From positions 37,871 through 101,870 of the IMG/VR virus record IMGVR_UViG_3300045988_154997: a stretch of DNA of 64,000 bases; one strand, 5' to 3'. Below, one piece after another: positions 4,500 to 63,326 of the stretch (positions are counted from its first letter, which is position 1; each line of letters opens with the position of its first letter). The position numbers and the translations under genes were made by a program. Under the pieces are notes generated by a model, which saw only the letters and a program-made list of their open reading frames with translations, had not been told where the DNA came from and did not search any database. Source of the stretch: a virus (taxonomy: Duplodnaviria; Heunggongvirae; Uroviricota; Caudoviricetes).

Positions 4500-5711
4500 G
4501 TGTCAATATTTTTAAGCGAAAAGGAAATGCAAAATTGGATAATTGACAAATTATCTGATCAAGATGGATTATATAATTCAATCATCAATATTGATAAATT
4601 AAATGAATTTAATCCGAAAAGACCCGAAGAGAAAAAAATTAAGGAGAGTTATCAGTTTTGTTTAAAGAACATAACATTGTTACATTTAATGACAGATGAT
4701 GAGAATATCTCAGCAACAAAATCTGAGATATTAAGACCTGATGTCGTTGCTTATTCAACAGAGAATGAATCCTTAGTTCTTATTGAGTTAAAAAATTTTT
4801 CAACACCAACAAGGGAAGCTGGAACTGAGCTAGTGGCATATGCTGCGGAACTAAAAAGTTACTTGTCATACTTGTCTGATGGAGATATTACCAATGTACT
4901 TATATCACCTGACTGGCCACCTTTGGTTAGACACTTTATTTTTAATATGATCGTGTGGCAGAAGAAAAACTTTCTATGTTTAGAACCTTGCTATGATTTA
5001 CAAGGTAACGTATCACTTACTCCTTTAGATATTAATAAATTAGTTATTGCGGAAGAAGCACTCAAGTTCTCATTTCGTCATCTTGGCGGGTTTCATATAT
5101 GTTTGTATGATGATGAAATGTATAATCAACCGACTTCCACTTCTCGTTTACATTCGAAATTGAATGTTATTAAAGCCAGCATGGCAAAAATGTCCTCAGA
5201 CGGTGAAAAGACTAATAGCCATGGGTTTGCTATTTTATGTAGAAATTTGAACGAGAGAACTTTAGCACCATATACGATTACTCTAGTTAATGTTTCTGCG
5301 TTTTCTTCCATAGAGCGATACTTTCATTCGCCACAAATATCCAATGCTTCTCAACTCCCTAGAATAGGACAAAAAATTTATGACATTTACACTCATTACC
5401 AACCATCAGGTTTTGGGGCATCAATGTCGAAAATTTACAATTCTGGGAGGGCATATTTAGAAAAAATTAATTGCAAGCCGCGGATCGAGGTTATAGACAC
5501 CTGGGATGTATTGCAAGTACATACACATGCGCCTTATATGGAAATGGTTCATATTGAAACGTGGGGAGTTTTTAAAGAAAAATTGATTGAAGGTCTAAAT
5601 GAATGTTATGAGGATGAATATTACACACCTGATTTTAACGATGTAGATTTTTGCATGGTGTGTATTGAATCCTTAATTGACCAGAATTATGAATTTATAA
5701 AACTTTTTTGA
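4500..5711 (+). CDS. PD-(D/E)xK nuclease-like protein (putative)
   Basis: 403 aa. Motif ILRPDVVAYSTENESLVLIELK fits the PD...(D/E)xK nuclease core. GTG start at 4500 with GGGAG 9 nt upstream; 26 nt after the previous gene. AT-rich. Confidence 0.5.
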   Translation: MSIFLSEKEMQNWIIDKLSDQDGLYNSIINIDKLNEFNPKRPEEKKIKESYQFCLKNITLLHLMTDDENISATKSEILRPDVVAYSTENESLVLIELKNFSTPTREAGTELVAYAAELKSYLSYLSDGDITNVLISPDWPPLVRHFIFNMIVWQKKNFLCLEPCYDLQGNVSLTPLDINKLVIAEEALKFSFRHLGGFHICLYDDEMYNQPTSTSRLHSKLNVIKASMAKMSSDGEKTNSHGFAILCRNLNERTLAPYTITLVNVSAFSSIERYFHSPQISNASQLPRIGQKIYDIYTHYQPSGFGASMSKIYNSGRAYLEKINCKPRIEVIDTWDVLQVHTHAPYMEMVHIETWGVFKEKLIEGLNECYEDEYYTPDFNDVDFCMVCIESLIDQNYEFIKLF

Positions 5712-5713
5712 AG

Positions 5714-5736
5714 AAAAGGGGCCGAAGCCCCTTTGA
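5714..5736. terminator. rho-independent terminator hairpin (AAAAGGGGC-CGAA-GCCCCTTTT), bidirectional
   Basis: GC stem with 4-nt loop and flanking A/T runs. Ends the plus-strand cargo operon and the minus-strand tRNA transcript. Confidence 0.6.
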
Positions 5737-5805
5737 ATATTGCGCTGAAAAAAAGTGTTGCTAGGATGTTAGCAAGCTATGGTTAAGAACGTCTGCCGTA
5801 ATTGT

Positions 5806-5895
5806 CAATCACAGCGTTGAGCGGTCTGGTTTATGTTAGCGGAGTCTTAATCGAGTTGATTAAAAGGCCAAACCGCTCAACGCTGTGTCTGGCGG
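5806..5895. repeat. long inverted repeat (15-bp arms ACAGCGTTGAGCGGT / ACCGCTCAACGCTGT, ~56-nt spacer)
   Basis: Read directly. Arms resemble those of a second IR at 6712-6833. Lies next to the 3' end of tRNA-Ser. Confidence 0.5.
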
Positions 5896-5899
5896 AGAG

Positions 5900-5986
5900 T
5901 AATGGAATCGAACCATCATCGTTTGCACAATGGGACGATTTTCAAGACCGCTTGAGCACCATGCTCCCTACTCTCCGGCCGTTGTG
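5900..5986 (-). tRNA. tRNA-Ser (anticodon UGA, type II) - tentative isotype
   Basis: 87 nt; reverse complement starts GGAGAGT, ends GGTTCGATTCCATTACTCTCCGCCA. Anticodon loop CTTGAAA. Long variable arm. Anticodon stem has two G-U pairs. Confidence 0.6.
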
Positions 5987-6200: not shown

Positions 6201-6276
6201 TGGTGCCGGTTAACGGACTCGAACCGCTGACATCCTGCTTACAAGGCAGGCGCTCTACCAACTGAGCTAAACCGGC
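6201..6276 (-). tRNA. tRNA-Thr (anticodon UGU)
   Basis: 76 nt GCCGGTTTAGCTCAGTTGGTAGAGCGCCTGCCTTGTAAGCAGG...GGTTCGAGTCCGTTAACCGGCACCA; perfect acceptor and anticodon stems; CCA encoded. Confidence 0.8.
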
Positions 6277-6280
6277 AATT

Positions 6281-6367
6281 TGGTGGGGAGTGATGGAGTC
6301 GAACCACCCGAGTCGCAATGACAGTAGATTTACAGTCTGTCCCGCTACCTCTACGGACTAACTCCCC
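6281..6367 (-). tRNA. tRNA-Tyr (anticodon GUA, type II), atypical anticodon stem
   Basis: 87 nt GGGGAGT...ACAGA-CTGTAAA-TCTAC...GGTTCGACTCCATCACTCCCCACCA; resembles E. coli tRNA-Tyr but the two outer anticodon-stem pairs are C-A / A-C. Confidence 0.65.
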
Positions 6368-6372
6368 TAAAT

Positions 6373-6447
6373 TGGCGATGGTGGGTGGATTCGAACCACC
6401 GACCAGTTGGTTAACAGCCAACTGCTCTACCGCTGAGCTACACCATC
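6373..6447 (-). tRNA. tRNA-Asn (anticodon GUU)
   Basis: 75 nt GATGGTGTAGCTCAGCGGTAGAGCAGTTGGCTGTTAACCAACTGGTCGGTGGTTCGAATCCACCCACCATCGCCA; canonical cloverleaf. Confidence 0.8.
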
Positions 6448-23228: not shown

Positions 23229-26200
23229 TTATTCTTTAGGTGAATTTAACTTCGTTTCAAGCTCCTCAACCCTTTTGGTCAATTGCTGAATATGATGAAT
23301 GAGTGGTACAACCAAACGCTCATACATCACTCCTTCAGCGACCATACCATTTGAGGAAATATCTCCTGGAGAATCATTATTTGTTGGTTCACGCCAATGG
23401 ACATATTGCGGGGCAATCTCACCAACCTCTTCAGCAATAAGGCCGTAATACCCCCAATCCTTTCGGTCACCTCGACAAATTGAACGATACCAAACAGGTC
23501 TTAATGACAAAAGTTCATCAGCATATCGATCTTGTAATGTTTCAATATCCTTTTTATAGCGCCTTGAAGATGTTGAACGCCAAACTGTATTGATACCTGG
23601 GTTTGGATCAATGTACATATTGGCACCGCTAGTAGTTGTGCCAATATCCCATATAGCAAACCCTCCACTACCGCCTGATTTGACAACCAGTGTTTCAGCA
23701 ATAATATCCAGGTTGCCACTATAGCCTGTCAGTGATGATCTGCTTGCATAGGAACTTAGAAGGTTTGTTACCTCTGTTTTCGTATAAGCATTAAGGTTAG
23801 CCGCAGTCAAAGTAATATCGGCAGAGCCATCAAACGCCACACCAGCAATTTTCCTTGCTGTCTGCAATTTTGTGGCTGTTGCGGCATTACCAGTAGTATT
23901 CTGATTACCGGTTGTATTCACACCAGGGATTGAATCCTTAGCGGTATATACCTGCGCCCACGCTGACCATGCCGCATCAGTGGTATCTCTTCTGGAGCGA
24001 ATGAAAACCGGCGCATGTGCACCGCTCGTACCACTCCAGCCAATAAGCAACTCGCCCTCACCAGCAGCACTCGCACCTTTCATGTGCAATACGTTGCCAT
24101 ACGTGGTCGGGTAGCTATTGTTGTACGCCTCGTACATTTGAATGCCAGCAGTACCTTGAGTAGAACCGCTTAAAGCCGTAACTCGACCACGAGAAACCAA
24201 TGTATTAATATTGATATCACCTGAACCATCAAACTTAACACCATTGATGTTTCTCGCTGTTTGCAACTTCGTAGCTGTTGAAGCATTGCCATTCAAGCTA
24301 CCATTTACGCCACCAGTAACATTTAGTCCATTACCAATAGACACAACACCGCTGCTATTATTAATTATAATCGGTCGCAAACTGTTCCATGAACCTAACG
24401 TATCTCCTGATGCTGTTAGCATGAAATATGTGCTGCCGCCGTCATTACGGATAAAGAACCCGTAGTTACCGTAAGCAATGCGGAAACCATTTGCATATTT
24501 TGAAACGATCTCACCAGAAGACGTTAACCCTCCAGATAATGTGCCACCTGAAAGCGGTAATGCTCCTACATCAGAAGCTGTTGGTTTGTTTCTAGTGTTA
24601 TAAGAACGACGCCAGCCTGGTGCATAATCACTTCCATTGTACACATAAATAAATTCCGCATTGTTAACACCACCATGACCCGATGTTGTTGTCGTTGTAA
24701 CACGAATAGTGTAGTGGCTTGTTGCCTTATTACTAAACACCTCAATCACGGAACCAGATAGATCGATCCTACCGCAACCAGTGTCGTCTATATAATTATT
24801 GTTGGCGTAAGTCCATGAGCACCGTGCGATCCAATGTTTGTTTGTAAATGCCCCCTGATTATTTAGCCAAGTTATAAATTGAGCAGTCGTAAATGCCGTT
24901 CCGTTACCACTATTTAACCATCCAGCGGCAGCGGTTGGCGCGTTTATATCAGCCGGCTGAGGCATAAATCCAGTCGTGTAAACCTGCTCCCAACCACTTT
25001 CAAAACCATAGCCATCTCTTGAGGAACGGTAGAACAGACCACCATTTTTATAGTGAGCTTTAATTTGAAGCGTACGGCAACTACCTACACCGGTATAAAA
25101 GTTGGCAAGAATATAACTGTCGCCTGTTCTAGTTACATTGTAAGCACCAGATTCAGCATTCCACGGCACGCCACCATCAGCATCCGCATATGACCCTGTT
25201 GCCCTTCTTGCGAAAGCGGCAACATGCGCAGCGGTTAAAGTGATATCAGTAGAACCATCAAATGGAACACCGGATATTTTTCTTGCAGTCTGAAGTTTTG
25301 TAGCAGTTGCAGCATTACCAGTGGTGTTCTGATTACCCGTAGTGTTTACACCTGGAAGGTTGATATTTGCAGAACCGTCGAAACCAACTCCACCGATAGA
25401 TCTTGCCGTCTGCAATTTCGTTGCTGTACTTGCATTACCATTTAATGTTCCGGTGATCCCACCAGTAACAGACAACGGACCTGAAACTGTTCCTCCGGTT
25501 GTTGGCAGTGCTCCAATATCTAACGGCGTCGGTTTCTGATGTGTGCTATACATCGTATAAACAACACCATCGGTAACGCTGGAAGGCTTACTCGCTGAAT
25601 ATGTTGGCGATGTATAAATAGAAACTGACGCATTTGCAGTACAATCCCAATGGATATTTACACTCGTCGCATAATTGCCAATTTCAACGTAAATATCATA
25701 TGTATCGCCGGATGTGTTGATCCAGGCGAAATTCGTTAATCCGACAGCTGTACGCTTCCACAAAGCACCTGTAATCCCTTTGGGGTTTCCATTGCCTGCT
25801 CGTAGAACCAGTTCTGAAATGCCTGCCTGATGTGGGGAGCCGACGTTGTAACCAGCGCCACCAATCAATGCGATGTAAACGATGGAACTCGCTTGTGGCA
25901 TTGTAACAGTAGCCAGTTTGAACCACCCGGCCCCGCCAGAGAAAGACATCGTTATTGAATTTAAAGTACCAATATCTTTCGGCGTTAATGTGATATCCGC
26001 AGTCAGTGCTTTCCCGTTAATTTTTCGGTTAGATGGCACCCTGCTGTTCGCATTGTCATTGACTACTTTAACTGCTTTTGGCGTTGCGGCCAGCGATTCA
26101 CTGGTGCTGTCGACAGCACTGCTAAGTTTCACAACACCTTTAGTTGTAAGGCTTGCGTCTTCCATCGCAACTGCACCGGCAATCTCTTCAGCACGATCAG

Positions 26201-27527
26201 CAGCAGCTTCCGCACGGGTCGCAGCGGATTCAGCAGCAGTTTTGCTCTGAGATGCTGCCGTCGCACTGCCTGCCGCCTCTGTTGCTTTCGTGGATGCCGT
26301 CGTGGCGCTGCCCTTCGCTGCTGACGCCTGTCTGGTCGCCTCATCTTTTGAAGCAGACGCAGATGATGCCGATGACGCCGCCGAACTGGCGGACGATGCG
26401 GCAGCCGTTTTTGAGGATTCTGCGCTGGTTTCCGACGCTTTCGCGTTCGTTTCGGATGTCTTCGCTGCGGAAGCAGACCTCGCTGCTGCGCTGGCCTGTT
26501 CAGTGGCTTCGCCAGCCTTCGTTGTGGCTGTTGAAGCAGACGATGCGGCACTTTCTGCCGATTTTCCGGCGGCGGTGGCACTGGCTGAGGCCTGCCCGGC
26601 ACTTGTTGACGCGGCACTGGCAGACGACGCAGCCGCTGTTTTTGAGCCTGCCGCAGCCGAGGCGCTCTGTCCCGCTGCCGTTTCAGAAGACCTGGCGTTC
26701 GTCTCGGACGTTTTTGCCGCCTTCGCGGAATTTCCTGCCGCCGTTGCCGAGGAAGCGGCATTACTGGCGCTCGAGGCTGCGCTCGTTTCTGATGATTTCG
26801 CTGCCTCTTTTGAGGCCGCCGCATCCCGGGCTGAGGTGGCAGCTTCTGACGCCTTCGTGGTCGCGGTGGATGCAGAAGTGGCTGCAGATTTTTGTGACGC
26901 TGCAGCATTCGTTTCAGACGTTTTCGCGGCACCGGCACTGGTGGCCGCCGCGCTTTTTGAGGACTCTGCAGCGGATGCACTTTGAGACGCTTGAGAGGCT
27001 TTTTCTCCAGCGGTATTGGCGCTTTCTGCTGCTGCGGCAGCACTGGCCGCCGCCTCACGAGCTTTGTCGCCAGCAGCATCAATCGCGTCAGTGTTATTTT
27101 TATACCACTCAACGTTTTCGTTGTGCTCGTTGACGATCTGCATTAGCGGCTTAACGGTCACTTCTGTACCGTCTTCACGCTCGATTGTCACCTCATCCAG
27201 AGCAGTCAACCAACTGCGCATGGACTTGGAATCAGCCGACATACGCGACATTAGTGCTGTAAAGCGCGCGCTAAACTGTGTTAAGTCGCCTTCATAGGTC
27301 GTAATGATTCGGCACGGAACTTCAGACTGAGTTTCGCCGGTATAAGGTTCTGAGAGAACAATGTTCGTATCACTGGTTACGCGCTTGATCTCATACAGCT
27401 TATTGTCGGGGCCAATGACGATCATCCCCGGCAACACACCATTAGCTGTTACGTTCCAGGCTGTCCCTGCCCCAACCAGAGTATTGCTGCCCTGTGTAAA
27501 TGTGATAGTACCTTCCCTGTACCACAT
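23229..27527 (-). CDS. long tail fibre protein with C-terminal intramolecular chaperone (S74-like) domain
   Basis: 1432 aa: N-terminal Ala/Ser-rich low-complexity region, four copies of a GNASTATKLQTARxIxGVxFDGSxDI fibre repeat, C-terminal RYKKDIE...GLIAEEV autoproteolytic chaperone-like domain. Confidence 0.8.
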   Translation of the reverse strand: MWYREGTITFTQGSNTLVGAGTAWNVTANGVLPGMIVIGPDNKLYEIKRVTSDTNIVLSEPYTGETQSEVPCRIITTYEGDLTQFSARFTALMSRMSADSKSMRSWLTALDEVTIEREDGTEVTVKPLMQIVNEHNENVEWYKNNTDAIDAAGDKAREAAASAAAAAESANTAGEKASQASQSASAAESSKSAAATSAGAAKTSETNAAASQKSAATSASTATTKASEAATSARDAAASKEAAKSSETSAASSASNAASSATAAGNSAKAAKTSETNARSSETAAGQSASAAAGSKTAAASSASAASTSAGQASASATAAGKSAESAASSASTATTKAGEATEQASAAARSASAAKTSETNAKASETSAESSKTAAASSASSAASSASSASASKDEATRQASAAKGSATTASTKATEAAGSATAASQSKTAAESAATRAEAAADRAEEIAGAVAMEDASLTTKGVVKLSSAVDSTSESLAATPKAVKVVNDNANSRVPSNRKINGKALTADITLTPKDIGTLNSITMSFSGGAGWFKLATVTMPQASSIVYIALIGGAGYNVGSPHQAGISELVLRAGNGNPKGITGALWKRTAVGLTNFAWINTSGDTYDIYVEIGNYATSVNIHWDCTANASVSIYTSPTYSASKPSSVTDGVVYTMYSTHQKPTPLDIGALPTTGGTVSGPLSVTGGITGTLNGNASTATKLQTARSIGGVGFDGSANINLPGVNTTGNQNTTGNAATATKLQTARKISGVPFDGSTDITLTAAHVAAFARRATGSYADADGGVPWNAESGAYNVTRTGDSYILANFYTGVGSCRTLQIKAHYKNGGLFYRSSRDGYGFESGWEQVYTTGFMPQPADINAPTAAAGWLNSGNGTAFTTAQFITWLNNQGAFTNKHWIARCSWTYANNNYIDDTGCGRIDLSGSVIEVFSNKATSHYTIRVTTTTTSGHGGVNNAEFIYVYNGSDYAPGWRRSYNTRNKPTASDVGALPLSGGTLSGGLTSSGEIVSKYANGFRIAYGNYGFFIRNDGGSTYFMLTASGDTLGSWNSLRPIIINNSSGVVSIGNGLNVTGGVNGSLNGNASTATKLQTARNINGVKFDGSGDININTLVSRGRVTALSGSTQGTAGIQMYEAYNNSYPTTYGNVLHMKGASAAGEGELLIGWSGTSGAHAPVFIRSRRDTTDAAWSAWAQVYTAKDSIPGVNTTGNQNTTGNAATATKLQTARKIAGVAFDGSADITLTAANLNAYTKTEVTNLLSSYASRSSLTGYSGNLDIIAETLVVKSGGSGGFAIWDIGTTTSGANMYIDPNPGINTVWRSTSSRRYKKDIETLQDRYADELLSLRPVWYRSICRGDRKDWGYYGLIAEEVGEIAPQYVHWREPTNNDSPGDISSNGMVAEGVMYERLVVPLIHHIQQLTKRVEELETKLNSPKE
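26130..27110. repeat. low-complexity GC-rich coding repeat (Ala/Ser/Thr-rich part of the tail fibre)
   Basis: Repetitive GCx codon runs; produces three long artefactual antisense ORFs in the six-frame track. Confidence 0.7.
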
Positions 27528-37800: not shown

Positions 37801-39463
37801 CGGTCGCCATCGTGGCAAAGGTGCTAACCATCTGGCTCCCAGCGCCAACTACCCCCATGATCCCTGCTCGCATCAGTTTGAACGCAACCATCGCGGCCAC
37901 GACCTTACCGAGATTAATTACCAGCTCTTGGTTCTTTGCTAACCATTGAGCAAGCTGACGCAACCCATCGATTGCCGTTGTTAACCCCGAACCTAAAGAA
38001 TTGGCAAACGAAATCCCTTCGGCGCTATTCATGATTGAAGCCAGTTCTTTCATCCCCTTCGATAGAGAATCCAGATATCCGGCCTGACCAACCCGATCAG
38101 CAAATAACGTGAATGACGTCTGAAGTTGCGCCAGCGCACCTGTGTAGGTTTGCATCATGTCTTTCGCTGCGTTCTCATTCTCCGCACGCAGACCAACAAA
38201 CATCAGAGACAACGCCTGTTTTGCCTCAACCGTACCGCTGGCAACGGCTTTAGTCAGTTCCCCCATAGTGATGCCTGCGGCGTCTGCCATTGCCTGCATC
38301 GCGTTAGGAACGGCTTCACCTAATTGCTGACGTAGCTCTTCCATTGACACAACGCCCTTACCGGACATCTGCTGAACGGCCACAGCCGCACGTTTCAACA
38401 GCTCACTATCACCACCAAAACGAGCAACGGAGTCCACCAGCGCCTTCAGAGAACCATCGGTTGGATCTAAGCCAGCAGAACGAAACTTCACGAAGGAGTC
38501 TGTTAACGCCTGCATCGCGAACGGCGCATTTTGAGCCATGTCTACGATGTACCTCATATCATCAGCGGCAGCCTGGCCCGGGTTGGACTTCTCCTTATTC
38601 AACCCTCGAAGCATCACCCGCATACGTTCCATTTCGGCCGCAGCTTCAACAATAGGCTTCTGCCACCCAAACATGATGTCAGTAACCGTTCTGGCTGCAT
38701 CTCCGATCTCGCCAAGCAGGAAAATGTTGCCACGAAGGCCAGAGAACATACCTCCTTCGTTACTTTTACCGCTATGGCCAGAAGCGCCGCTACGCCGCCC
38801 GCTACCACCATCGCCACTTCCAGATGTACGAACGCGTACCGGCTTGCTAATCAGTTGCTGACGTCCGATAACTTCGTCCATCTGCTCACGAACCTTTTTC
38901 AGTCCCTCGGCAGCCTGACTCGTTGTGACACCCCAATTACTGAGTCGCTTCGTCGTGGTATTAAGGCGCGTATTCATGCCACTCACGGACGCAGAGGCTT
39001 CTTTGACCTCCGTACCAAAGCGGCTTGCGCTTTTGCTTGCATAGGTCGCCCAATCAGAGAAATCATTTAGCTCTGATTGCACTTTACGTAATGACGCGGT
39101 GAGTTTATCTACTGAAGAAGTTGTCGTATCGACGCGCTCAATCAGGGCTTTAAGACCAGAATTGAGGCTGGTGATGTTGCCACGCATTTTACGCGTAGCA
39201 TCTGAAGCAAGCTCAAAACCGGCAGCTACATCCTGTAGTTTATCTGCCGTAGAATCGAGCTTGCTTTCCAGAACGCCAATGATACGGGCGACCGAACCCA
39301 AAGAGCGTTCAAAGGTTTGGATTTTTTGAGCAGGCTTTGTTACCTGCTCACCAAATCGAGTAAGCAGTTTCCCCGCACGATCGATTGACGCTGTAAACTG
39401 TTTGTCTTCCAGCGACAGGATAAACTCTACGTTTTGTGACATTCCCTTGTCATCCTCTGCCAA
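34889..39463 (-). CDS. H: tail tape measure protein
   Basis: 1524 aa, long helical/coiled-coil central region, hydrophobic Gly-rich segment; position between G-T and M. Confidence 0.85.
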   Translation of the reverse strand: MAEDDKGMSQNVEFILSLEDKQFTASIDRAGKLLTRFGEQVTKPAQKIQTFERSLGSVARIIGVLESKLDSTADKLQDVAAGFELASDATRKMRGNITSLNSGLKALIERVDTTTSSVDKLTASLRKVQSELNDFSDWATYASKSASRFGTEVKEASASVSGMNTRLNTTTKRLSNWGVTTSQAAEGLKKVREQMDEVIGRQQLISKPVRVRTSGSGDGGSGRRSGASGHSGKSNEGGMFSGLRGNIFLLGEIGDAARTVTDIMFGWQKPIVEAAAEMERMRVMLRGLNKEKSNPGQAAADDMRYIVDMAQNAPFAMQALTDSFVKFRSAGLDPTDGSLKALVDSVARFGGDSELLKRAAVAVQQMSGKGVVSMEELRQQLGEAVPNAMQAMADAAGITMGELTKAVASGTVEAKQALSLMFVGLRAENENAAKDMMQTYTGALAQLQTSFTLFADRVGQAGYLDSLSKGMKELASIMNSAEGISFANSLGSGLTTAIDGLRQLAQWLAKNQELVINLGKVVAAMVAFKLMRAGIMGVVGAGSQMVSTFATMATAIQTPFNLGATAVTRFNRAARMGLAPIPSLIFAIRGAITGLKGAFAGLTAFIAANPIGAAFTVATVAVAGLITYMTMLRSETSKVVDEIRKIPEAMTAAKRAQMADRAEKLEKQILADQRALKNGEGVNYVSNSAGVITHKESKADIEARLKKNQEEYQKITGTIALGDGAVAKRLAKEAAESQIEKIRAENQIFAATFVKARQEALDKIQKINDDGSLSDDEKNKLLAPLRETVNKSYLEPAQKLVDSLSSRKNATEKQIATLNDQLEKAKKDGNTEQIQKLQGSIRGYQEHLEAVAQELTQAEFERDNAAKTGKGVMSNQGTVLGLGTTDKAAQKALAQYMRNQMDSATYQRTLPDGTPMMDFEGKPIIGPKQLKTQLNLQKASSASSLEKMSDEERAAAIAALTKAREQDAAAAEKAAQRSANASQRAAKKEQAAQQKLAAGYQKALDKADQLMGQMGESSKATVSFDQSLRDTTKSLTDLANAVPNEFITQEMIDKAKKRLEDLKNATPEYREMFNRRNVEQMISTWAPEADSIISAGYTPSREDKVADFEGTYNRNLKALIELRDKASDPKVVALYTKKINQLIAAGNTALIKETGTATQKLALEYENLAEQIENTWTDLFSGLTDALTDFVINGKMSFSSLSQSILKDITNMVVKSQITLPLMNMLGMGTTAAGSSQSGNLLTGVASAVANQGVRMGNTVNGDKSVGEATKETSSSVTGLGQTTQQTTSAIGTATNAIGSWVSGLFDSTEAKDAETKAVKDSIFSMQNLSSVTGALSAAFAMLGANASGSGNKWLSFGATVASGLVSAWAGGGFDSVTSSSAKTATSSVADGTKGIPAIPKFANGGIFGKDGVIPLRAYQKGGIANSPQLALFGEGSMNEAYVPLPDGRTIPVTLSTDGMSGGGNVLSPVSIEINVHSDGSTTESGDTESIWNNAAQRMKAIALETIAQEKRPGGSLNPNTQRN

Positions 39464-55190: not shown

Positions 55191-55655
55191 ATGAAGTCTC
55201 CCATACTGTTCACTTTCTGTTCTAAAACTATCATGAAATACTCGCTTCTCCCTCTACTAACGTTACCAGTGTTGATGCTTACCGCGTGCCAATCACGCCC
55301 AATATCAATCCATGACGCCAAACCAGCACCGCAGGCCAAAGTGTTCAAGTATCAAAGCGCAGCGCCAGCTACGTTGGTGGTAATGAGAGACACAGGTTTT
55401 GTAGGAGCTGGATGTGATGCTTCCATTTTCATCAACGGCGAAACTGTCGCAAAACTGGCTACAGGCGAAAAAGCGACTTTCCATTTAAATGCCGGAGAAT
55501 TAATTGTGGGTGCATCTCTTGAAGGTGCAGGTTTATGTGCTCTAAACCCCGCTCGTCAAGAGCGAGAAACGACTCTGAAGAATGGAGACACAAAAGCGTT
55601 CAGGGTGTTCACCAGCAATTCTGGTGACATCGACATTCTGCCAACAACTCTGTGA
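55191..55655 (+). CDS. lipoprotein (hypothetical)
   Basis: Signal peptide with lipobox LLTLPVLMLTAC. Confidence 0.5.
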   Translation: MKSPILFTFCSKTIMKYSLLPLLTLPVLMLTACQSRPISIHDAKPAPQAKVFKYQSAAPATLVVMRDTGFVGAGCDASIFINGETVAKLATGEKATFHLNAGELIVGASLEGAGLCALNPARQERETTLKNGDTKAFRVFTSNSGDIDILPTTL

Positions 55656-55659
55656 TGAC

Positions 55660-56184
55660 ATGACAACCAAAGATATTACCTACGGTATCCAAGCTGAACT
55701 CTGGCCGCGAGATTACACTAACGTTGAAAAACTACTGATGTTCTGGCGCAGAGAACAAATTCCTGTAAGGGTCACTCTCGAAGATGGCCAGGCGTTTTGC
55801 ATGTACGTTTATGGCCTCATGCCATCTCGTAACAAAGTTGACCTTTGCCCAGCCCCTTTTGACAAAGAAAATCGTATAAGGCTCCCACTTGAACGCATTA
55901 GTACAATTGAATCAGGTGTGGTTGACAGTATCGCTCACGATTTCAAAGGTCGACTAACAGTTCACCCTGATTATGTCGATAATCGGCCATCACGCCGCGA
56001 TTTTTTTGCAATTTGCAACCAAGCCTACAAAGCAAACAAATCTATAAGGGTGTACATGGCGGATGGCCGTGAAATTGAGGGGGTGTCAGCAGGCGCAGAT
56101 GCTTGTCAGGTTACACTACGTGTCGAGAACGGTAGAAAAATAGTTGTTTTGTTCGATTGGGTTGAACGAATTTTGCCTTTTTGA
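55660..56184 (+). CDS. hypothetical protein
   Basis: Track ORF 55582..56184; in-frame ATG at 55660 (MTTKD) lies just after the upstream stop. Confidence 0.45.
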   Translation: MTTKDITYGIQAELWPRDYTNVEKLLMFWRREQIPVRVTLEDGQAFCMYVYGLMPSRNKVDLCPAPFDKENRIRLPLERISTIESGVVDSIAHDFKGRLTVHPDYVDNRPSRRDFFAICNQAYKANKSIRVYMADGREIEGVSAGADACQVTLRVENGRKIVVLFDWVERILPF

Positions 56185-56187
56185 GTT

Positions 56188-56496
56188 ATGAAATCGATAT
56201 TGTTACCACCATTATTTTTACTTTGCTCAGTTGCGGCAAATGCAATGGACTATAAGCCTGTCATTCAGTCGCTGATGAATGACGTGTGCTCAACGTCTCA
56301 GAATGTATCAGTTTGCATGTATCAATTTTCGGCAGCCGTAAAAGCAGGAAAAGCGATAGGTGAGAATGTGGAACTGTGTAAGAAAGTGGCAAATGAAGAA
56401 CGGGCAATGTTGGATTGCGAATCTAGCGAGTCATCGGCACAGTTCGTTGATGCGCTATTTGACACCAATCGTAAGGCTGTAGATTCTGTTCAATAA
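56188..56496 (+). CDS. secreted hypothetical protein
   Basis: N-terminal signal peptide MKSILLPPLFLLCSVAANA; several Cys. Confidence 0.45.
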   Translation: MKSILLPPLFLLCSVAANAMDYKPVIQSLMNDVCSTSQNVSVCMYQFSAAVKAGKAIGENVELCKKVANEERAMLDCESSESSAQFVDALFDTNRKAVDSVQ

Positions 56497-56508
56497 ATCT
56501 ATAAGGTT

Positions 56509-56540
56509 AATAACCGGCTAAGTCCGGTTATTATTTTTCA
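56509..56540 (+). terminator. rho-independent terminator (AATAACCGG-CTAAGT-CCGGTTATT + T-run)
   Basis: Hairpin followed by ATTTTT, 13 nt after the stop at 56496. Confidence 0.6.
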
Positions 56541-56779
56541 CATCACTTCTTTATATCTACAAATCAAATAACCTAAATATATATAAGGTCTAAAGCCGCA
56601 ATCGATTATTTATTTAGGGAACACCTTCGACGATCTCGCTTTTATTTCTAGGACTTTCATCCCTGCAAAAAATTTAAAAAAAACACTTGCAATCTTTTTT
56701 CGCATATCGATAATTGAACTCGTCGAAAGCGAAGACGCTAACGACAATAAATTTTAAATTTACATAAGGAAAAATTATC

Positions 56780-57430
56780 ATGGCTAACATTATCATTTCT
56801 AAAAAATCCATCATTGAAGCTGCTTCCATTGTATCCGATGAACTGCGCGAAAAAGCAGATCTGGCAACTCAAACATATAACGAACATTATAAAAATGGTA
56901 CGCACACTAAAGCAGACAAAGCAAATATGCAAGCTGCGACCACTAAACTTGCTTACTTCATCAACAACGTCGTAAACGCAGTAGAAGACGAAAAATTATG
57001 CTCTGTTTTCTACTATGCGATTAAAGCAAGCAAACAAGCGCCAGAAGTATTTTTCCGTGATGCAATGACTAATAGTTATTCTCTGGAAAAACTGGTTTAT
57101 CTGGTTAAATCAATTAAATCTGGTAAATGCGTTTATTCCATCGCTGATATGTCTGGATCTCGTGTATTCGCTTTAATCGATATGATTAACGACGAGATCG
57201 ACACGTTCACTAATGGCGCTGTTTTCGATTTAATGAATGAAGCTAAAAAAGCGTGTGAAATTAAATTGGACGCTGGTTATACTCAAGCCAACCAGTTGAT
57301 CAATCTTTGCGAACGTCTTGGACTTGTTGAAAAAGTCAAAGGAGCTGGGAGCGCGAAAGCTGGTACTCAGCAATATCGCTTCATTAAAAATGATTTCTAC
57401 AATTATTTAGCTGATGCTTTCAAAGCGTAA
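56780..57430 (+). CDS. hypothetical protein (AT-rich cassette gene 1)
   Basis: 216 aa ORF with AAGGAAAAA upstream; visibly AT-rich. Confidence 0.5.
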   Translation: MANIIISKKSIIEAASIVSDELREKADLATQTYNEHYKNGTHTKADKANMQAATTKLAYFINNVVNAVEDEKLCSVFYYAIKASKQAPEVFFRDAMTNSYSLEKLVYLVKSIKSGKCVYSIADMSGSRVFALIDMINDEIDTFTNGAVFDLMNEAKKACEIKLDAGYTQANQLINLCERLGLVEKVKGAGSAKAGTQQYRFIKNDFYNYLADAFKA

Positions 57431-57442
57431 TTAATGGAATCA

Positions 57443-57463
57443 AGCGCCCACTATGGGCGCTTT
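57443..57463 (+). terminator. hairpin AGCGCCCA-CTAT-GGGCGCT (weak T-run), duplicate of the 57940-57960 hairpin
   Basis: Identical 21-mer at 57940-57960; sits between gene 1 and gene 2 of the cassette. Confidence 0.4.
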
Positions 57464-57478
57464 AAAGGAGCTTTGAAA

Positions 57479-57682
57479 ATGGTCAGCTATGACAAGATCC
57501 GCGCGGAATATCGCGCAAAGTATCGCGCTTATAAACTAGAATTAATCGATGATTTAATCGCGCAACGCGACCAATTAAATTTTACGTTTTCTGATTTGCT
57601 TAACAGCAAGCGAGATTGCAAGCGCAAACGTGAATACTTACGTTTAAGCGCATTAATCGGAAAACTTCAAAATTCTATTTAA
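57479..57682 (+). CDS. hypothetical protein (AT-rich cassette gene 2)
   Basis: ATG at 57479 with AAGGAG 9 nt upstream; the track start 57434 would place the hairpin inside the ORF. Confidence 0.4.
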   Translation: MVSYDKIRAEYRAKYRAYKLELIDDLIAQRDQLNFTFSDLLNSKRDCKRKREYLRLSALIGKLQNSI

Positions 57683-57702
57683 TTTTTTTAAGGAGCTTAA
57701 TC

Positions 57703-57933
57703 ATGTTTGTTCTTATCGCTGGCGTTAACGTCCATAACGAATATTATGTTAATCGCATCGCTGGGATCGCTGGTTACGCTGGGCGCGCAGTCGAGCTTAT
57801 AGATGAAACGACGCGCAAAATTGACTTATTGAGCGACCAGGAGCGAAAAAAAGCAGACGTGAACGACGCTGATATATTTTTAATGTTAAAAGCGTTTGTA
57901 GAAATGGGATTTAAAATCAGTTTACACAAATAA
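57703..57933 (+). CDS. hypothetical protein (AT-rich cassette gene 3)
   Basis: 76 aa ORF with AAGGAG upstream. Confidence 0.4.
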   Translation: MFVLIAGVNVHNEYYVNRIAGIAGYAGRAVELIDETTRKIDLLSDQERKKADVNDADIFLMLKAFVEMGFKISLHK

Positions 57934-57937
57934 AATC

Positions 57938-57966
57938 GAGCGCCCACTATGGGCGCTTTTTTCGTT
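57938..57966 (+). terminator. rho-independent terminator (GAGCGCCCA-CTAT-GGGCGC + TTTTTT)
   Basis: Strong hairpin with a 6-T run, 5 nt after the stop at 57933. Confidence 0.7.
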
Positions 57967-58420
57967 TCCAATACTCCCACCATAACGCGCCATCATTAGC
58001 ACGTTTTTTATTGTCTTTAACTCACTCCAACAACATAAAAATAAGCGCCAAAATAACGCTATGGACGCGTTTTTATATCCTTACCAGTACATACCCATTA
58101 CTTAACACATTAACGCGCTTAAAACACGTTATATTGCGCTATAGAGTATGGTTAATCATTGGCTTTTAGTCTTGCTTTATGATCCGCGTTTATTTGTCGG
58201 CGCGGATCGGCATTTTGTTTTGTTCCGTATCCGCTCGCGTATTATGTGCGCGTGATTTTTCACATAATCACACCACTTAATCACGTATGTGATTATGCTA
58301 CGAAAGAAAACTGGATGTCTCAGGCGACGAAAGTCATCATAATTTTCCCCGCTCACCTGTCCGACAACCGCTGGTTGGATTCCACCAGCTTCCCGATGTT
58401 TTTTCTACATAAAGGCGAAT
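57967..58420. other. AT-rich non-coding region with short inverted repeats (candidate origin-associated region)
   Basis: No convincing ORF; short IRs (GATCCGCG...CGCGGATC, CATAATCACA...TGTGATTATG); adjacent to iteron-like repeats. Confidence 0.4.
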
Positions 58421-58423
58421 GCA

Positions 58424-58541
58424 GCCGTTTCCCGAAAAAAATCCTGGCCGTTCCCCGTCGGTTCATGAATACGTTCCTCGCCGTTTCTGAAAATTTCCCT
58501 GCGGCAGCTGGTGGCTATAGAGAAAGGGCCGTTTCTGGCCC
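58424..58541. repeat. iteron-like direct repeats, array A (GCCGTTTCCC-type, 4 copies)
   Basis: Copies at 58424, 58447, 58480, 58528; the last lies within a terminator hairpin downstream of the 58551..59033 gene. Confidence 0.5.
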
Positions 58542-58550
58542 TCTTCTCAG

Positions 58551-61555: not shown

Positions 61556-61690
61556 GCCGTTCCTGAACCGGCATCGAGCCTTTTCCCGAAATCCACACAG
61601 GCAACTCGACCGTTTCCCTGAAAACCTCCAGCCGTACCCCGAAGGCAACCCAGCCGTTTCTGTAGCGGGATGCAGCCTTTTCCCTGTATG
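61556..61690. repeat. iteron-like direct repeats, array B (6 copies of GCCGTTTCCCTG-type 10-mer at ~22-bp spacing)
   Basis: Copies start at 61556, 61578, 61609, 61631, 61653, 61675; spacing 22 bp (one 31-bp gap). Confidence 0.6.
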
Positions 61691-61899: not shown

Positions 61900-62520
61900 T
61901 TTCTGTTGGTGAATTGGGTGTGTTGTTTTCTCTGTCGGTGTATGTGGTTTCGTTAGTTTTGCGGTGGTTCTTCTATGGGGTGTTCTCGTCGTTTTGGTGA
62001 TTGTTCTTCTCCGTCTATGGAGTAATGGCAGGTGGGCGATTGCTTTCGTTATTGTGTTTGAGTTGTTTGTCTGGAGTGTGTGAAAGGCTTTTGTAGTTAT
62101 TCGTGTATTGGGTAATGGCGTTTCCCGTGATTGTTATGTTTCGTGTCTTTTGGGATTGAGAGAAACCTTGCGGTTACAGGCTTCGTTGGGGTTTCAGTGA
62201 TTCTGGTGTTTCTTCGCTGTTTGGGTAATGGCGTGTCGTGGGTATCGCGCGTATGAATGTTTTCGGATTGCCTGTGAAAGTTAGGTTGGTTGTCCGGTAG
62301 CCTGGGGAGAAGAGGTGGGTCTTTTCGGTAGCCTGCCATAAAGAGGTTGGCTGTTTTGGGTAATGGCATATGTGTTATTTAGTTGTTTTGTTATGCCTGA
62401 AAATAAGTTGTTTATATGTTTGTGTAACGCAACGGGAACGATTTTGAGCGTGTGTTTTTGTTGGTAGTGTGTTGGGTCGTCTGTGGTGAAAATTGGACGC
62501 TGTGGCGCTGTCTGCTGCGT
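61900..62520. repeat. G+T-rich strand-biased non-coding region with internal repeats
   Basis: Plus strand almost only G and T; GGGTAATGGC recurs at ~62111, ~62223, ~62359; two tandem 31-bp repeats at 62295-62357; no credible ORF. Confidence 0.5.
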
Positions 62521-62756
62521 AGAATTACGGGTATAAGCAGTGATGTGTGAAAACGTCAATTTTTTAGACCAAATCGGGTGAAAGCGTTGATGTTTCGTTG
62601 ATCTGTTATTCAGTTGTTTTCTTGATTGTATAAACAACTATAACTTATTGATATTTAAGGATGTGATTGCGGGTATGGAAGGAGAGTAGTGGCGATCAAC
62701 GGATTCTTATAGAAAAGAATCAAATTGTGACCGCCATTATCAATGAGTTGCAACCG

Positions 62757-63326
62757 TTAGTTGTTCAGATAAACATTTGGAACACGGACGTAGAAGTTCC
62801 TGTCGCCGGTAAGTTCCAGAGTAATGTTAATGTCATTACCATTGTCTAGTGTAGCCGTTGCTCTATAGAACTTATCCGTCACCTTGTCCTCTATTGTCAC
62901 CTTCATACATTTTGGTGCAGTCGAACCGTTATTCTCTTTCAGAATAGTTGTCACGAGAGGGCAGGCTGCTTCTTCAAGAGCAACCTCGTCCTTGTGTGGG
63001 ATGCCGATGAAGATAATCCAAGCCAGCGACGCAACGATTATGATAAATGGCACTCTGCTGCCTTTTGTAATAGTCGCGCGCTTCCAGAGATAGACAGGCA
63101 GGAGGAATACCCCCCATAGAATTGAAGGTGGTTCACAGCCAGACTCCGATAGAGCCATTCTGTCAGCTACTAACAAACCGATGGTAGTTACACCCCCAAT
63201 TATAATAGCGTAATTGGTATACTCTTCCGGCGATACTCCAAAGAAGAAAGGCATGAACGCTAGAATCCACGCATAAATGTTATTCAGAGGTTTTGTTTGT
63301 TGGTTCTGGGTTTCCATCACATCCAT
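62757..63326 (-). CDS. membrane protein (hypothetical)
   Basis: 189 aa with several hydrophobic segments (IYAWILAFMPFFFGV, IIIGGVTTIGLLV, ILWGVFLLPVYLW, FIIIVASLAWIIFIGI). Confidence 0.5.
   Translation of the reverse strand: MDVMETQNQQTKPLNNIYAWILAFMPFFFGVSPEEYTNYAIIIGGVTTIGLLVADRMALSESGCEPPSILWGVFLLPVYLWKRATITKGSRVPFIIIVASLAWIIFIGIPHKDEVALEEAACPLVTTILKENNGSTAPKCMKVTIEDKVTDKFYRATATLDNGNDINITLELTGDRNFYVRVPNVYLNN

Follow-up and report, generated by a model that had tools for sequence, protein, structure and literature searches.

T4-type phages carry PeSLs, cassettes of promoter plus terminator that flank small non-essential open reading frames (ORFs) without a known role, and recombination between these cassettes leads to insertions, deletions and replacements of the ORFs (Arbiol et al. 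2010, PMC2839356; Comeau et al. 2014, PMC4122927). Here, we describe a comparable arrangement in a stretch of 64,000 nucleotides (the window), which covers positions 37,871 to 101,870 of the IMG/VR virus record IMGVR_UViG_3300045988_154997. The locus lies at positions 56,780 to 57,966 of the window and comprises three small plus-strand genes (gene 1, g2 and g3) and two copies of one hairpin, HP1 behind gene 1 and HP2 behind g3. We consider it probable that the hairpins are copies of the terminator of a single operon and that they border an exchangeable slot for small genes behind a core gene. As with PeSLs, a short conserved, terminator-like stem-loop is repeated at the borders of small ORFs, and the indels and replacements that separate close relatives are bounded by its copies. 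However, the PeSL is a composite with a strong sigma-70 early promoter, whereas here the stem-loop is followed by a Shine-Dalgarno sequence and has no promoter part. PeSLs are also scattered over several hyperplastic regions of virulent myoviruses, whereas the present hairpin occurs in one to three copies at a single locus of a temperate, siphovirus-type phage-plasmid. The locus is not a PeSL but appears to work similarly, and PeSL shuffling is the closest described phenomenon. It would represent a local, promoter-less variant of known small-gene shuffling in phages, behind an uncharacterised core gene, and thus fairly ordinary genome tinkering.

Judged by nucleotide identity, the window is an SSU5-type phage-plasmid, because its region 56500-58100 matches Escherichia phage CMS-2020a (97% identity), PhiR41_1 (94%), Cyrano (91%), and Salmonella phage SSU5 together with several Klebsiella phage-plasmids (~82%). 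Annotated relatives have in common the gene order UvsW-like helicase, small genes, FljA-like 'transcriptional regulator', the 216-aa gene 1, and one or two small genes, which are followed past the slot by a gap of ~600 bp and a long run of small genes on the opposite strand. An earlier note, made from the window's letters and ORF list, had described a compact, self-contained cassette of three AT-rich genes framed by duplicated terminator hairpins. Its three genes of 216, 67 and 76 aa are indeed all in the ORF list, and its call of good ribosome-binding sites holds as well, with AAGGA or AAGGAG located 8-9 nt 5' of every ATG. The listed ORF of g2 begins at 57434 (82 aa), and the 67-aa start at 57479, which has its AAGGAG at this distance, is also the one annotated in relatives. 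AT-richness is real and modest, with a GC content of 38.8% for the locus as compared to 45.6% for the whole window, which puts the locus among the lowest 6% of equal-sized windows. The identical 21-mer that was reported for the two hairpins exists in two exact copies, the second of which starts at 57939 and not, as had been given, at 57940. What did not stand is the framing of all three genes: HP1 is situated between gene 1 and g2, and the hairpin pair encloses only the 67-aa and 76-aa genes. Of the two supposed terminators, HP2 with its run of six T is called intrinsic by a terminator scan (and has a terminator-like score on the minus strand, too), whereas HP1, which has three T and is followed by TTTAAAGG / TTTAAAGGAGC, is not. 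Coordinates of all features of the locus are compiled in Table 1.

Table 1. Features of the gene 1-g2-g3 locus and its borders (window coordinates)
Feature	Position	Strand	Basis and remarks
Terminator hairpin of the preceding 102-aa gene	56508..56533	+	Terminator scan; fold -12.6 kcal/mol, z -4.55; upstream boundary
Putative sigma-70 promoter, TTGCAA-16 nt-GATAAT	56687..56714	+	Consensus scan, 9/12 matches
Gene 1, 216 aa, phrog_1513	56780..57430	+	ORF list, PHROG match; core gene
HP1, stem 57443-57450 / 57454-57461, loop CTA, then 3 T	57443..57463	+	Repeat search, folding
Gene 2 (g2), 67 aa, phrog_6145	57479..57682	+	ORF list; AAGGAG at 57465-57470; accessory
Gene 3 (g3), 76 aa, phrog_1585	57703..57933	+	ORF list; AAGGAG at 57690-57695; accessory
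HP2, stem-loop of HP1 plus T6 run (57957-57962)	57939..57964	.	Repeat search, terminator scan
T2, putative back-up terminator hairpin; in relatives AACGCGCCA-N4-TGGCGCGTT plus T run	57984..58009	+	Sequence; 56 distinct right flanks compared

The 21-mer shared by the hairpins (AGCGCCCACTATGGGCGCTTT) occurs exactly twice in the 64 kb, with no copy expected in 100 shuffles, and the repeat can be extended to 31 nt at 90% identity; a search of the window with the looser pattern GCGCC-N3-7-GGCGC retrieved no site besides HP1 and HP2. Both copies fold into a stem of 8-9 bp with six GC pairs and a loop of 3 nt (about -15.6 kcal/mol in 50-nt contexts) at a short distance from the preceding stop codon (13 nt for HP1, 6 nt for HP2), and HP1 abuts the Shine-Dalgarno sequence of g2. 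The two positions differ in the T run behind the stem. Among relatives, uninterrupted runs of 1-4 nt were found in all 42 distinct contexts in which a gene follows the hairpin, as compared to 5-7 nt in 33 of the 35 distinct contexts in which the hairpin is terminal. Most relatives have the second hairpin T2 ~25 nt past the last copy, the 3' arm of which has decayed to TAGCACGTT in the window. From this pattern of stem-loops and T runs we infer that HP2 probably terminates transcription and that HP1 is probably read through. As to stem sequence, the 17-nt core GCGCCCA-NNN-TGGGCGC is invariant in ~170 copies, save for the loop and two single stem mismatches, and stem covariation is unusable because the stems do not vary. 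The exact 19-mer is present in 93 IMG/VR stretches, with one to three copies per contig, and is found beside gene 1 wherever flanks are present; in one long stretch (L090), none of the six neighbouring genes tested was present. Rfam searches of the window at gathering threshold returned three tRNAs only, all distant from the locus. The hairpin loops flip between CTA and TAG among relatives, even near-identical ones (L003 as compared to L006; also L001 and L077; positions 57451-57453 and 57947-57949 in the window). Likewise, the T2 loop (57993-57996) flips between TTGT and ACAA or ATGA and TCAT with an unchanged stem. Such small loop inversions are typical of palindrome-mediated template switching or of recombination within the hairpin.

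The slot between the hairpins was surveyed in 80 IMG/VR loci encoding gene 1 and in phage records, which yielded 85 loci with enough flanking sequence. A single small gene between two hairpin copies was the most frequent architecture, either g2 (HP-g2-HP, 27/85 loci) or g3 (HP-g3-HP, 18/85 loci), followed by the window's own type HP-g2-g3-HP (17 loci) and by a single hairpin with no gene (9 loci). The rarer architectures were HP-g3'-HP and HP-g2''-HP-HP (4 loci each), HP-g2-g3'-HP (3 loci), HP-g3'-HP-g3-HP (2 loci), and HP-g2''-HP (1 locus). A hairpin copy is located at the outer slot edges and, in 2 of the 22 two-gene loci, also between the genes. These two loci (L022, L027) encode two diverged g3 paralogues, each with its own hairpin ahead. 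In the window, the junction of g2 and g3 is hairpin-free and reads TAA-TTTTTTT-AAGGAGCTTAATC-ATG, which matches the remainder expected after precise excision of an inter-module hairpin, an event that we suppose took place here. Slot content can change rapidly, as gene-1 alleles at least 92% identical to that of the window are associated with four slot architectures.

Several lines of evidence point to recombination at the hairpins. An empty site (L055) joins the usual left flank of HP1 (TTAGATGGATATA) to the usual right flank of HP2 (TTTTTTCGTTTCAAGATCC) around one hairpin, and would be the expected product of a crossover between two hairpin copies. In alignments of the window with the loci L044 and L049, identity rises from ~80% to ~95% exactly at HP1 and stays high through ~58230. 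HP1 is, as read from these alignments, a recombination junction between lineages, because inter-lineage identity jumps exactly there. Loci with a gene 1 only 82-83% identical to that of the window carry a g3 that is 93-96% identical, which suggests that g3 has been horizontally exchanged between lineages; g2, unlike g3, diverges in step with gene 1. Small promoter-less ORFs that are each bounded by a palindrome, in an array of variable content, are also reminiscent of integrons, and the hairpins could then be site-specific recombination sites analogous to attC. The attC site is an imperfect palindrome of 57-141 nt with extrahelical bases and depends on an adjacent IntI integrase. Here, by contrast, the palindrome is perfect and 19 nt long, the annotations of PhiR41_1 and SSU5 show no integrase up to 6 kb away from the locus in either direction, the slot accepts two gene families only, and identity junctions occur also at T2 and further downstream, as expected of general homologous recombination. 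We reject the integron-like interpretation for reasons of size, perfect symmetry and the lack of an annotated integrase nearby, and consider it very improbable.

The scenario that we favour, a copied terminator hairpin around an exchangeable slot, can be outlined as follows. The locus would be the 3' part of one operon, in which the putative sigma-70-type promoter drives the core gene 1 and the repeated hairpin serves as the operon's intrinsic terminator. Accessory modules, in each of which a small ORF is preceded by a Shine-Dalgarno sequence and followed by a few bases, would have been inserted 3' of a hairpin copy, and therefore the slot has a hairpin at either end. Copies that came to be followed by a gene would have lost their U-tract and would be read through, because the U-tract is required for intrinsic termination and is missing from internal copies. 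The last copy, which retains a tract of U5-7, would terminate transcription, with T2 as a back-up in most relatives. Recombination or slippage between identical copies could then lead to loss, gain, duplication and inter-lineage exchange of modules. Read-through copies probably shield the 3' end of gene-1 mRNA and lower downstream expression. A precedent for the latter is the REP sequence between malE and malF, an intercistronic stem-loop that reportedly sets differential expression (attributed to Newbury and co-workers, 1987). Like this REP sequence, HP1 separates an upstream gene from downstream cistrons as a stable, GC-rich hairpin that has no U-tract, and by analogy one would expect that the upstream mRNA is protected from 3' exonucleases and that the downstream genes are attenuated. 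The two differ in origin, as HP1 is a copy of what appears to be the operon's own terminator and REP belongs to a genome-wide repeat family.

Gene 1 is the constant part of the locus. In a tblastn search of PLSDB it was found in 815 plasmids, distributed among Klebsiella (346), Escherichia (217), Enterobacter (91), Yersinia (62), Salmonella (49), Citrobacter (25), and Cronobacter (10). The portal gene of the window gave 341, 204, 91, 62, 49, 25, and 10 plasmids for the same genera, and additional distant matches elsewhere. From this distribution, gene 1 belongs to the core of SSU5/pHCM2/pMT1-type phage-plasmids, because it is present in so many plasmids at per-genus counts that nearly equal those of the portal gene. 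Its homologues form 102 clusters at 90% identity, and the long contigs among them are all enterobacterial phage-plasmids of 100-115 kb; none of the homologous proteins has been given a name. The Yersinia plasmids are pFra/pMT1 of Y. pestis and have an identical gene order; in pFra NZ_CP151600.1 (L088), positions 4950-5912 span the FljA-like gene and gene 1 together with a slot gene of 75 aa. A dN/dS of 0.07 at a mean dS of 0.84 indicates strong purifying selection on gene 1. A profile search with the gene-1 alignment against 1.84 billion representative proteins retrieved 23 proteins with E <= 0.001, namely full-length relatives, some of them distant, as well as fragments, and no link to a named family, the library itself carrying no names.

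In the AlphaFold2 model of the gene-1 protein (pLDDT 82.5), residues 8-68 form a long helical hairpin, the other parts being a helical bundle and, at the C-terminus, a winged helix (~129-201). The elements of this predicted winged helix (helices 145-158 and 168-179, strands 183-186 and 198-201) correspond to a helix-turn-helix plus a beta-hairpin wing, and conservation within the protein is highest in the recognition helix and wing (YTQANQLINLCERLG..EK.KG.G). Foldseek returned weak winged-helix matches for the C-terminal domain only (MukE/F, the winged-helix domain of Orc/Cdc6, RTP, TubR, MarR/PadR), and structure searches of PDB and BFVD gave no match with E <= 0.001. The gene-1 product is probably a nucleic-acid-binding dimer with a helical hairpin and a winged helix, and might bind DNA. 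Gene 1 itself is mosaic: its segment 57080-57240 is 95-100% identical between the window and L044/L049, as compared to 55-85% for the remaining gene.

Expression of the operon in a lysogen can be deduced from published data on Cyrano, an SSU5-type phage-plasmid of E. coli LF82 for which normalised RNA-seq read counts of all genes are available (S1 Table of PMC9928086). The gene-1 orthologue CYRAN_113 and the g3 orthologue CYRAN_112 have values of 5.9 and 5.0 (the floor value) normalised reads, as compared to a median of 9.8 for Cyrano, a value of 18 for the adjacent FljA-like gene, and the cut-off of 49 that its authors applied for morons; inside macrophages, values increase a few-fold (PMC9928086). 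Cyrano has no g2 orthologue. The operon, as represented by gene 1 and g3 in this one strain under few conditions, is off in the lysogen; therefore, gene 1 and g3 are not prophage-expressed morons. This silence argues against a moron as defined by expression as well as against a role in plasmid maintenance, and fits a role after induction or infection. The products most likely act at that stage, because the operon is off in the lysogen.

The slot genes themselves are small and narrowly distributed. Only two protein families were found in the slot among the 85 loci, each with two branches (42% identical for g2, 58% identical for g3), and both families are restricted to SSU5-type elements. With a dN/dS of 0.17 (g2) and 0.23-0.31 (g3), both are under purifying selection and therefore real genes. 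Searches of the three proteins of the locus against Pfam and NCBIfam revealed no family at or above threshold, in agreement with the absence of recognisable motifs stated in the earlier note; a PDB sequence search gave no match above threshold, PADLOC yielded no significant match (best E 0.027), and PHROG families without an assigned role were the sole matches above threshold. Literature searches on pFra protein accessions, PhiR41, CMS-2020a and pHCM2 likewise turned up nothing on function. For g2, no library searched gave a match above threshold. The label 'MIT family metal ion transporter' (SSU5_119, phrog_6145) is a mis-annotation: CorA/MIT transporters have ~300 aa, two C-terminal transmembrane helices and a GMN motif, and g2 has 67 aa only and no CorA Pfam match. 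The label stems from the SSU5 RefSeq record and has spread to PHROGs, where it is filed under 'moron, auxiliary metabolic gene and host takeover'. The model of g3 (pLDDT 74; 1/5 models >60) is a predicted beta-alpha-beta-beta-alpha-beta ferredoxin-like fold with generic Foldseek matches (Cas2, PII, designed ferredoxins; E >= 0.006) and nothing with E <= 0.001 in PDB. Residues 19-27 of g3 (57757-57783) form a triplet repeat, IAG-IAG-YAG, the length of which varies among alleles via deletions of 3 or 6 aa, and alleles are mosaic for a segment that reads SDQERKKADV or NDIERSDIGI.

It was proposed in the earlier note that the three genes are an anti-defence or moron unit. For g2 and g3, a payload for anti-defence or host takeover, or a moron, would be compatible with the slot architecture. 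Both come and go among close relatives and are exchanged between lineages, both are small and limited to SSU5-type elements, g3 alleles are mosaic with a repeat of variable length, dN/dS of the two is above that of gene 1, and lysogen silence would fit early lytic expression. Yet gene 1 is core and not accessory, and the proposal is partly supported for g2 and g3 only, which are accessory among close relatives. A slot that holds only two families across 85 loci is also unlike typical anti-defence islands, no defence-related or other family was matched in Pfam, NCBIfam or PADLOC, and the predicted fold of g3 is a generic one. The distance from HP1 to the next ATG comprises 15-20 nt with a Shine-Dalgarno sequence and no promoter hexamers; the small genes lack a promoter of their own because there is just this space between HP1 and the next start codon, and the Cyrano prophage does not express g3. 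Morons of lambdoid phages, reportedly described in 2000 by Juhala and co-workers and by Hendrix and co-workers, resemble g2 and g3 in that they are small extra genes of some relatives only that end in an intrinsic terminator. In contrast, the slot genes reside without promoter inside an operon behind a core gene, and the g3 orthologue is silent in one lysogen. Of the three hallmarks of a moron, presence or absence among relatives applies to g2 and g3 (and not to gene 1), and the other two, an own promoter and (judged from gene 1 and g3 in Cyrano) expression from the prophage, are lacking. In the sense of expression, the moron proposal is contradicted by the Cyrano values. Remote homology and structure prediction, which the note had suggested, led to a winged helix for gene 1 and a ferredoxin-like fold for g3, generic folds without significant matches. 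The note had further reasoned that homologues being conserved core genes with known function would speak against its proposal; core status is what we found for gene 1, a known function is not. Altogether, we regard a payload or moron role of the unit, or at least of g2 and g3, as unlikely, though it is a stronger candidate than integron-like sites.

Returning to the copied terminator around an exchangeable slot, several observations weigh against it or sit uneasily with it. The promoter call is a 9/12 consensus match from a scan that as a whole was not above chance (13 sites as compared to 10.5 expected); its -10 region TCGATAATT and CTTG of the -35 are kept across relatives. Lysogen silence was recorded in one strain under few conditions, and the best Foldseek matches of gene 1, confined to the winged helix, have E values of 0.016 (PDB) and 0.042 (BFVD). 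In some relatives, two to three hairpins follow one another as 44-bp tandem repeats that enclose no gene, which a terminator role leaves unexplained. The stem is identical even where gene 1 is ~50% identical, despite the mean dS of 0.84 for gene 1; in these lineages, the FljA-like protein is ~40% and a downstream 160-aa protein 33% identical, and T2 differs as well. Stem conservation thus appears to exceed what structure alone obviously requires. Two readings of the invariant stem are possible, namely homogenisation by the recombination that moves modules, or sequence-specific recognition, for example by the gene-1 winged helix.

According to the second of these readings, the hairpin would primarily be a palindromic DNA site with 8-bp arms and a 3-bp spacer for a dimeric protein, most obviously the gene-1 winged helix, and would act as operator, roadblock or centromere-like element. 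Besides the invariance of the stems in lineages that have diverged in gene 1, the neighbouring proteins and T2, this is supported by the gene-free 44-bp arrays of two to three copies directly after gene 1, by the variation and flipping of the loop, as expected of an uncontacted spacer, and by the particular conservation of recognition helix and wing in gene 1. The distribution of T runs, however, follows terminator logic, with a U-tract on the terminal copy and not on internal ones, and there is no copy near the operon promoter or elsewhere in the 64 kb. Some relatives open with a hairpin that is shorter by one pair and still symmetric, AGCGCCA-GAA-TGGCGCT; this variant preserves pairing and would alter half-site spacing. 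Other terminator hairpins of the locus are highly conserved as well: the one upstream (Table 1) is unrelated in sequence to HP1 and HP2, and across 77 distinct upstream regions its columns reach a conservation of at least 90%. In addition, a Pectobacterium plasmid with a 39% identical gene 1 has an unrelated putative terminator, ATCCGCCA-TTAC-TGGCGGAT plus T run, at the same position. Its gene-1 homologue retains the recognition helix (TQxNQxIxLCERLG) and yet is followed by a different stem, which weakens the idea of recognition. Because the stem differs at the same place, the Pectobacterium locus shows conservation of position and apparent role rather than of sequence.

A centromere-like function has a counterpart in plasmid F, in which sopC repeats are located downstream of sopB, and in parS-type centromere repeats. 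Like these, the locus may present short inverted repeats in tandem direct repeats of ~43-44 bp directly 3' of a gene for a putative DNA-binding protein. It differs in its one to three copies, in that no adjacent gene for a partition NTPase was seen, and in a U-tract pattern that fits terminators. Silence of gene 1 in the plasmid state argues against a role in partition, and we set this reading aside for that reason. Overall, a hairpin that is first of all a protein-binding site appears improbable, more so than a payload role of the small genes. About equally improbable, in our estimate, is a combination of both ideas, by which the palindrome may be a specifically recognised element that defines an exchangeable payload slot behind the core gene in all enterobacterial SSU5/pHCM2/pMT1-type phage-plasmids; the gene-1 protein or another element-encoded protein would be the recogniser, and the two families would be host-specific payloads, for example for anti-defence.

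None of these results overturns current understanding. SSU5-type phage-plasmids, to which pHCM2 of S. Typhi and pMT1/pFra of Y. pestis also belong, are frequent among clinical Klebsiella, E. coli, Enterobacter, and Salmonella, and their early and accessory regions are almost entirely annotated as 'hypothetical'. As a core gene that is silent in the lysogen and probably encodes a nucleic-acid-binding protein, gene 1 is a sensible target for a knock-out. The defined, variable slot with its two families g2 and g3 could be useful as a typing marker and offers candidate payloads for host interaction. Furthermore, the locus represents a clean natural case of terminator-like hairpins as junctions of module exchange outside the T4-type phages from which PeSLs were described.

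Immediately 5' of the operon, the N-terminus encoded by the 102-aa ORF 56188-56496 (phrog_9536) resembles a signal peptide (MKSILLPPLFLLCSVAANA). Some relatives (pJN2-26) have this ORF whereas SSU5 and PhiR41_1 lack it, and it marks a second variable spot. The preceding FljA-like gene (55582-56184) matches Pfam Flag1_repress over residues 31-197 (E 2.5e-84) and, weakly, an Hfq-like family (E 0.001). Its real start is probably 3' of the ATG in the ORF list, because the ORF as listed overlaps a 154-aa lipoprotein-like ORF (55191-55655). FljA binds fliC mRNA and acts as a translational repressor, and the conserved copy of the phage-plasmids might target host flagellin or phage transcripts. On the other side, the slot is followed by a non-coding gap of ~590 bp (57967-58550) between converging transcription units, which contains more plus-strand terminator-like hairpins (58180-58209 and 58236-58252) and iteron-like GCCGTTTC motifs at 58424, 58447, 58480 and 58528; a second cluster of these motifs lies at 61578-61643. 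The motif GCCGTTTCCCGAA is retained even in the Pectobacterium relative (L182, ~4093). This gap might serve as an origin or as a packaging site, or might harbour a small RNA. Further away, the three tRNAs form a minus-strand cluster at 6204-6447, one of them barely over the Rfam threshold (32.9 as compared to 29 bits). Two segments of the window are outliers in composition, namely 26001-27000 within a 1432-aa ORF (23229-27527), with a GC content of 0.593 and an AT skew of -0.327, and 62001-63000, with a GC skew of +0.312.

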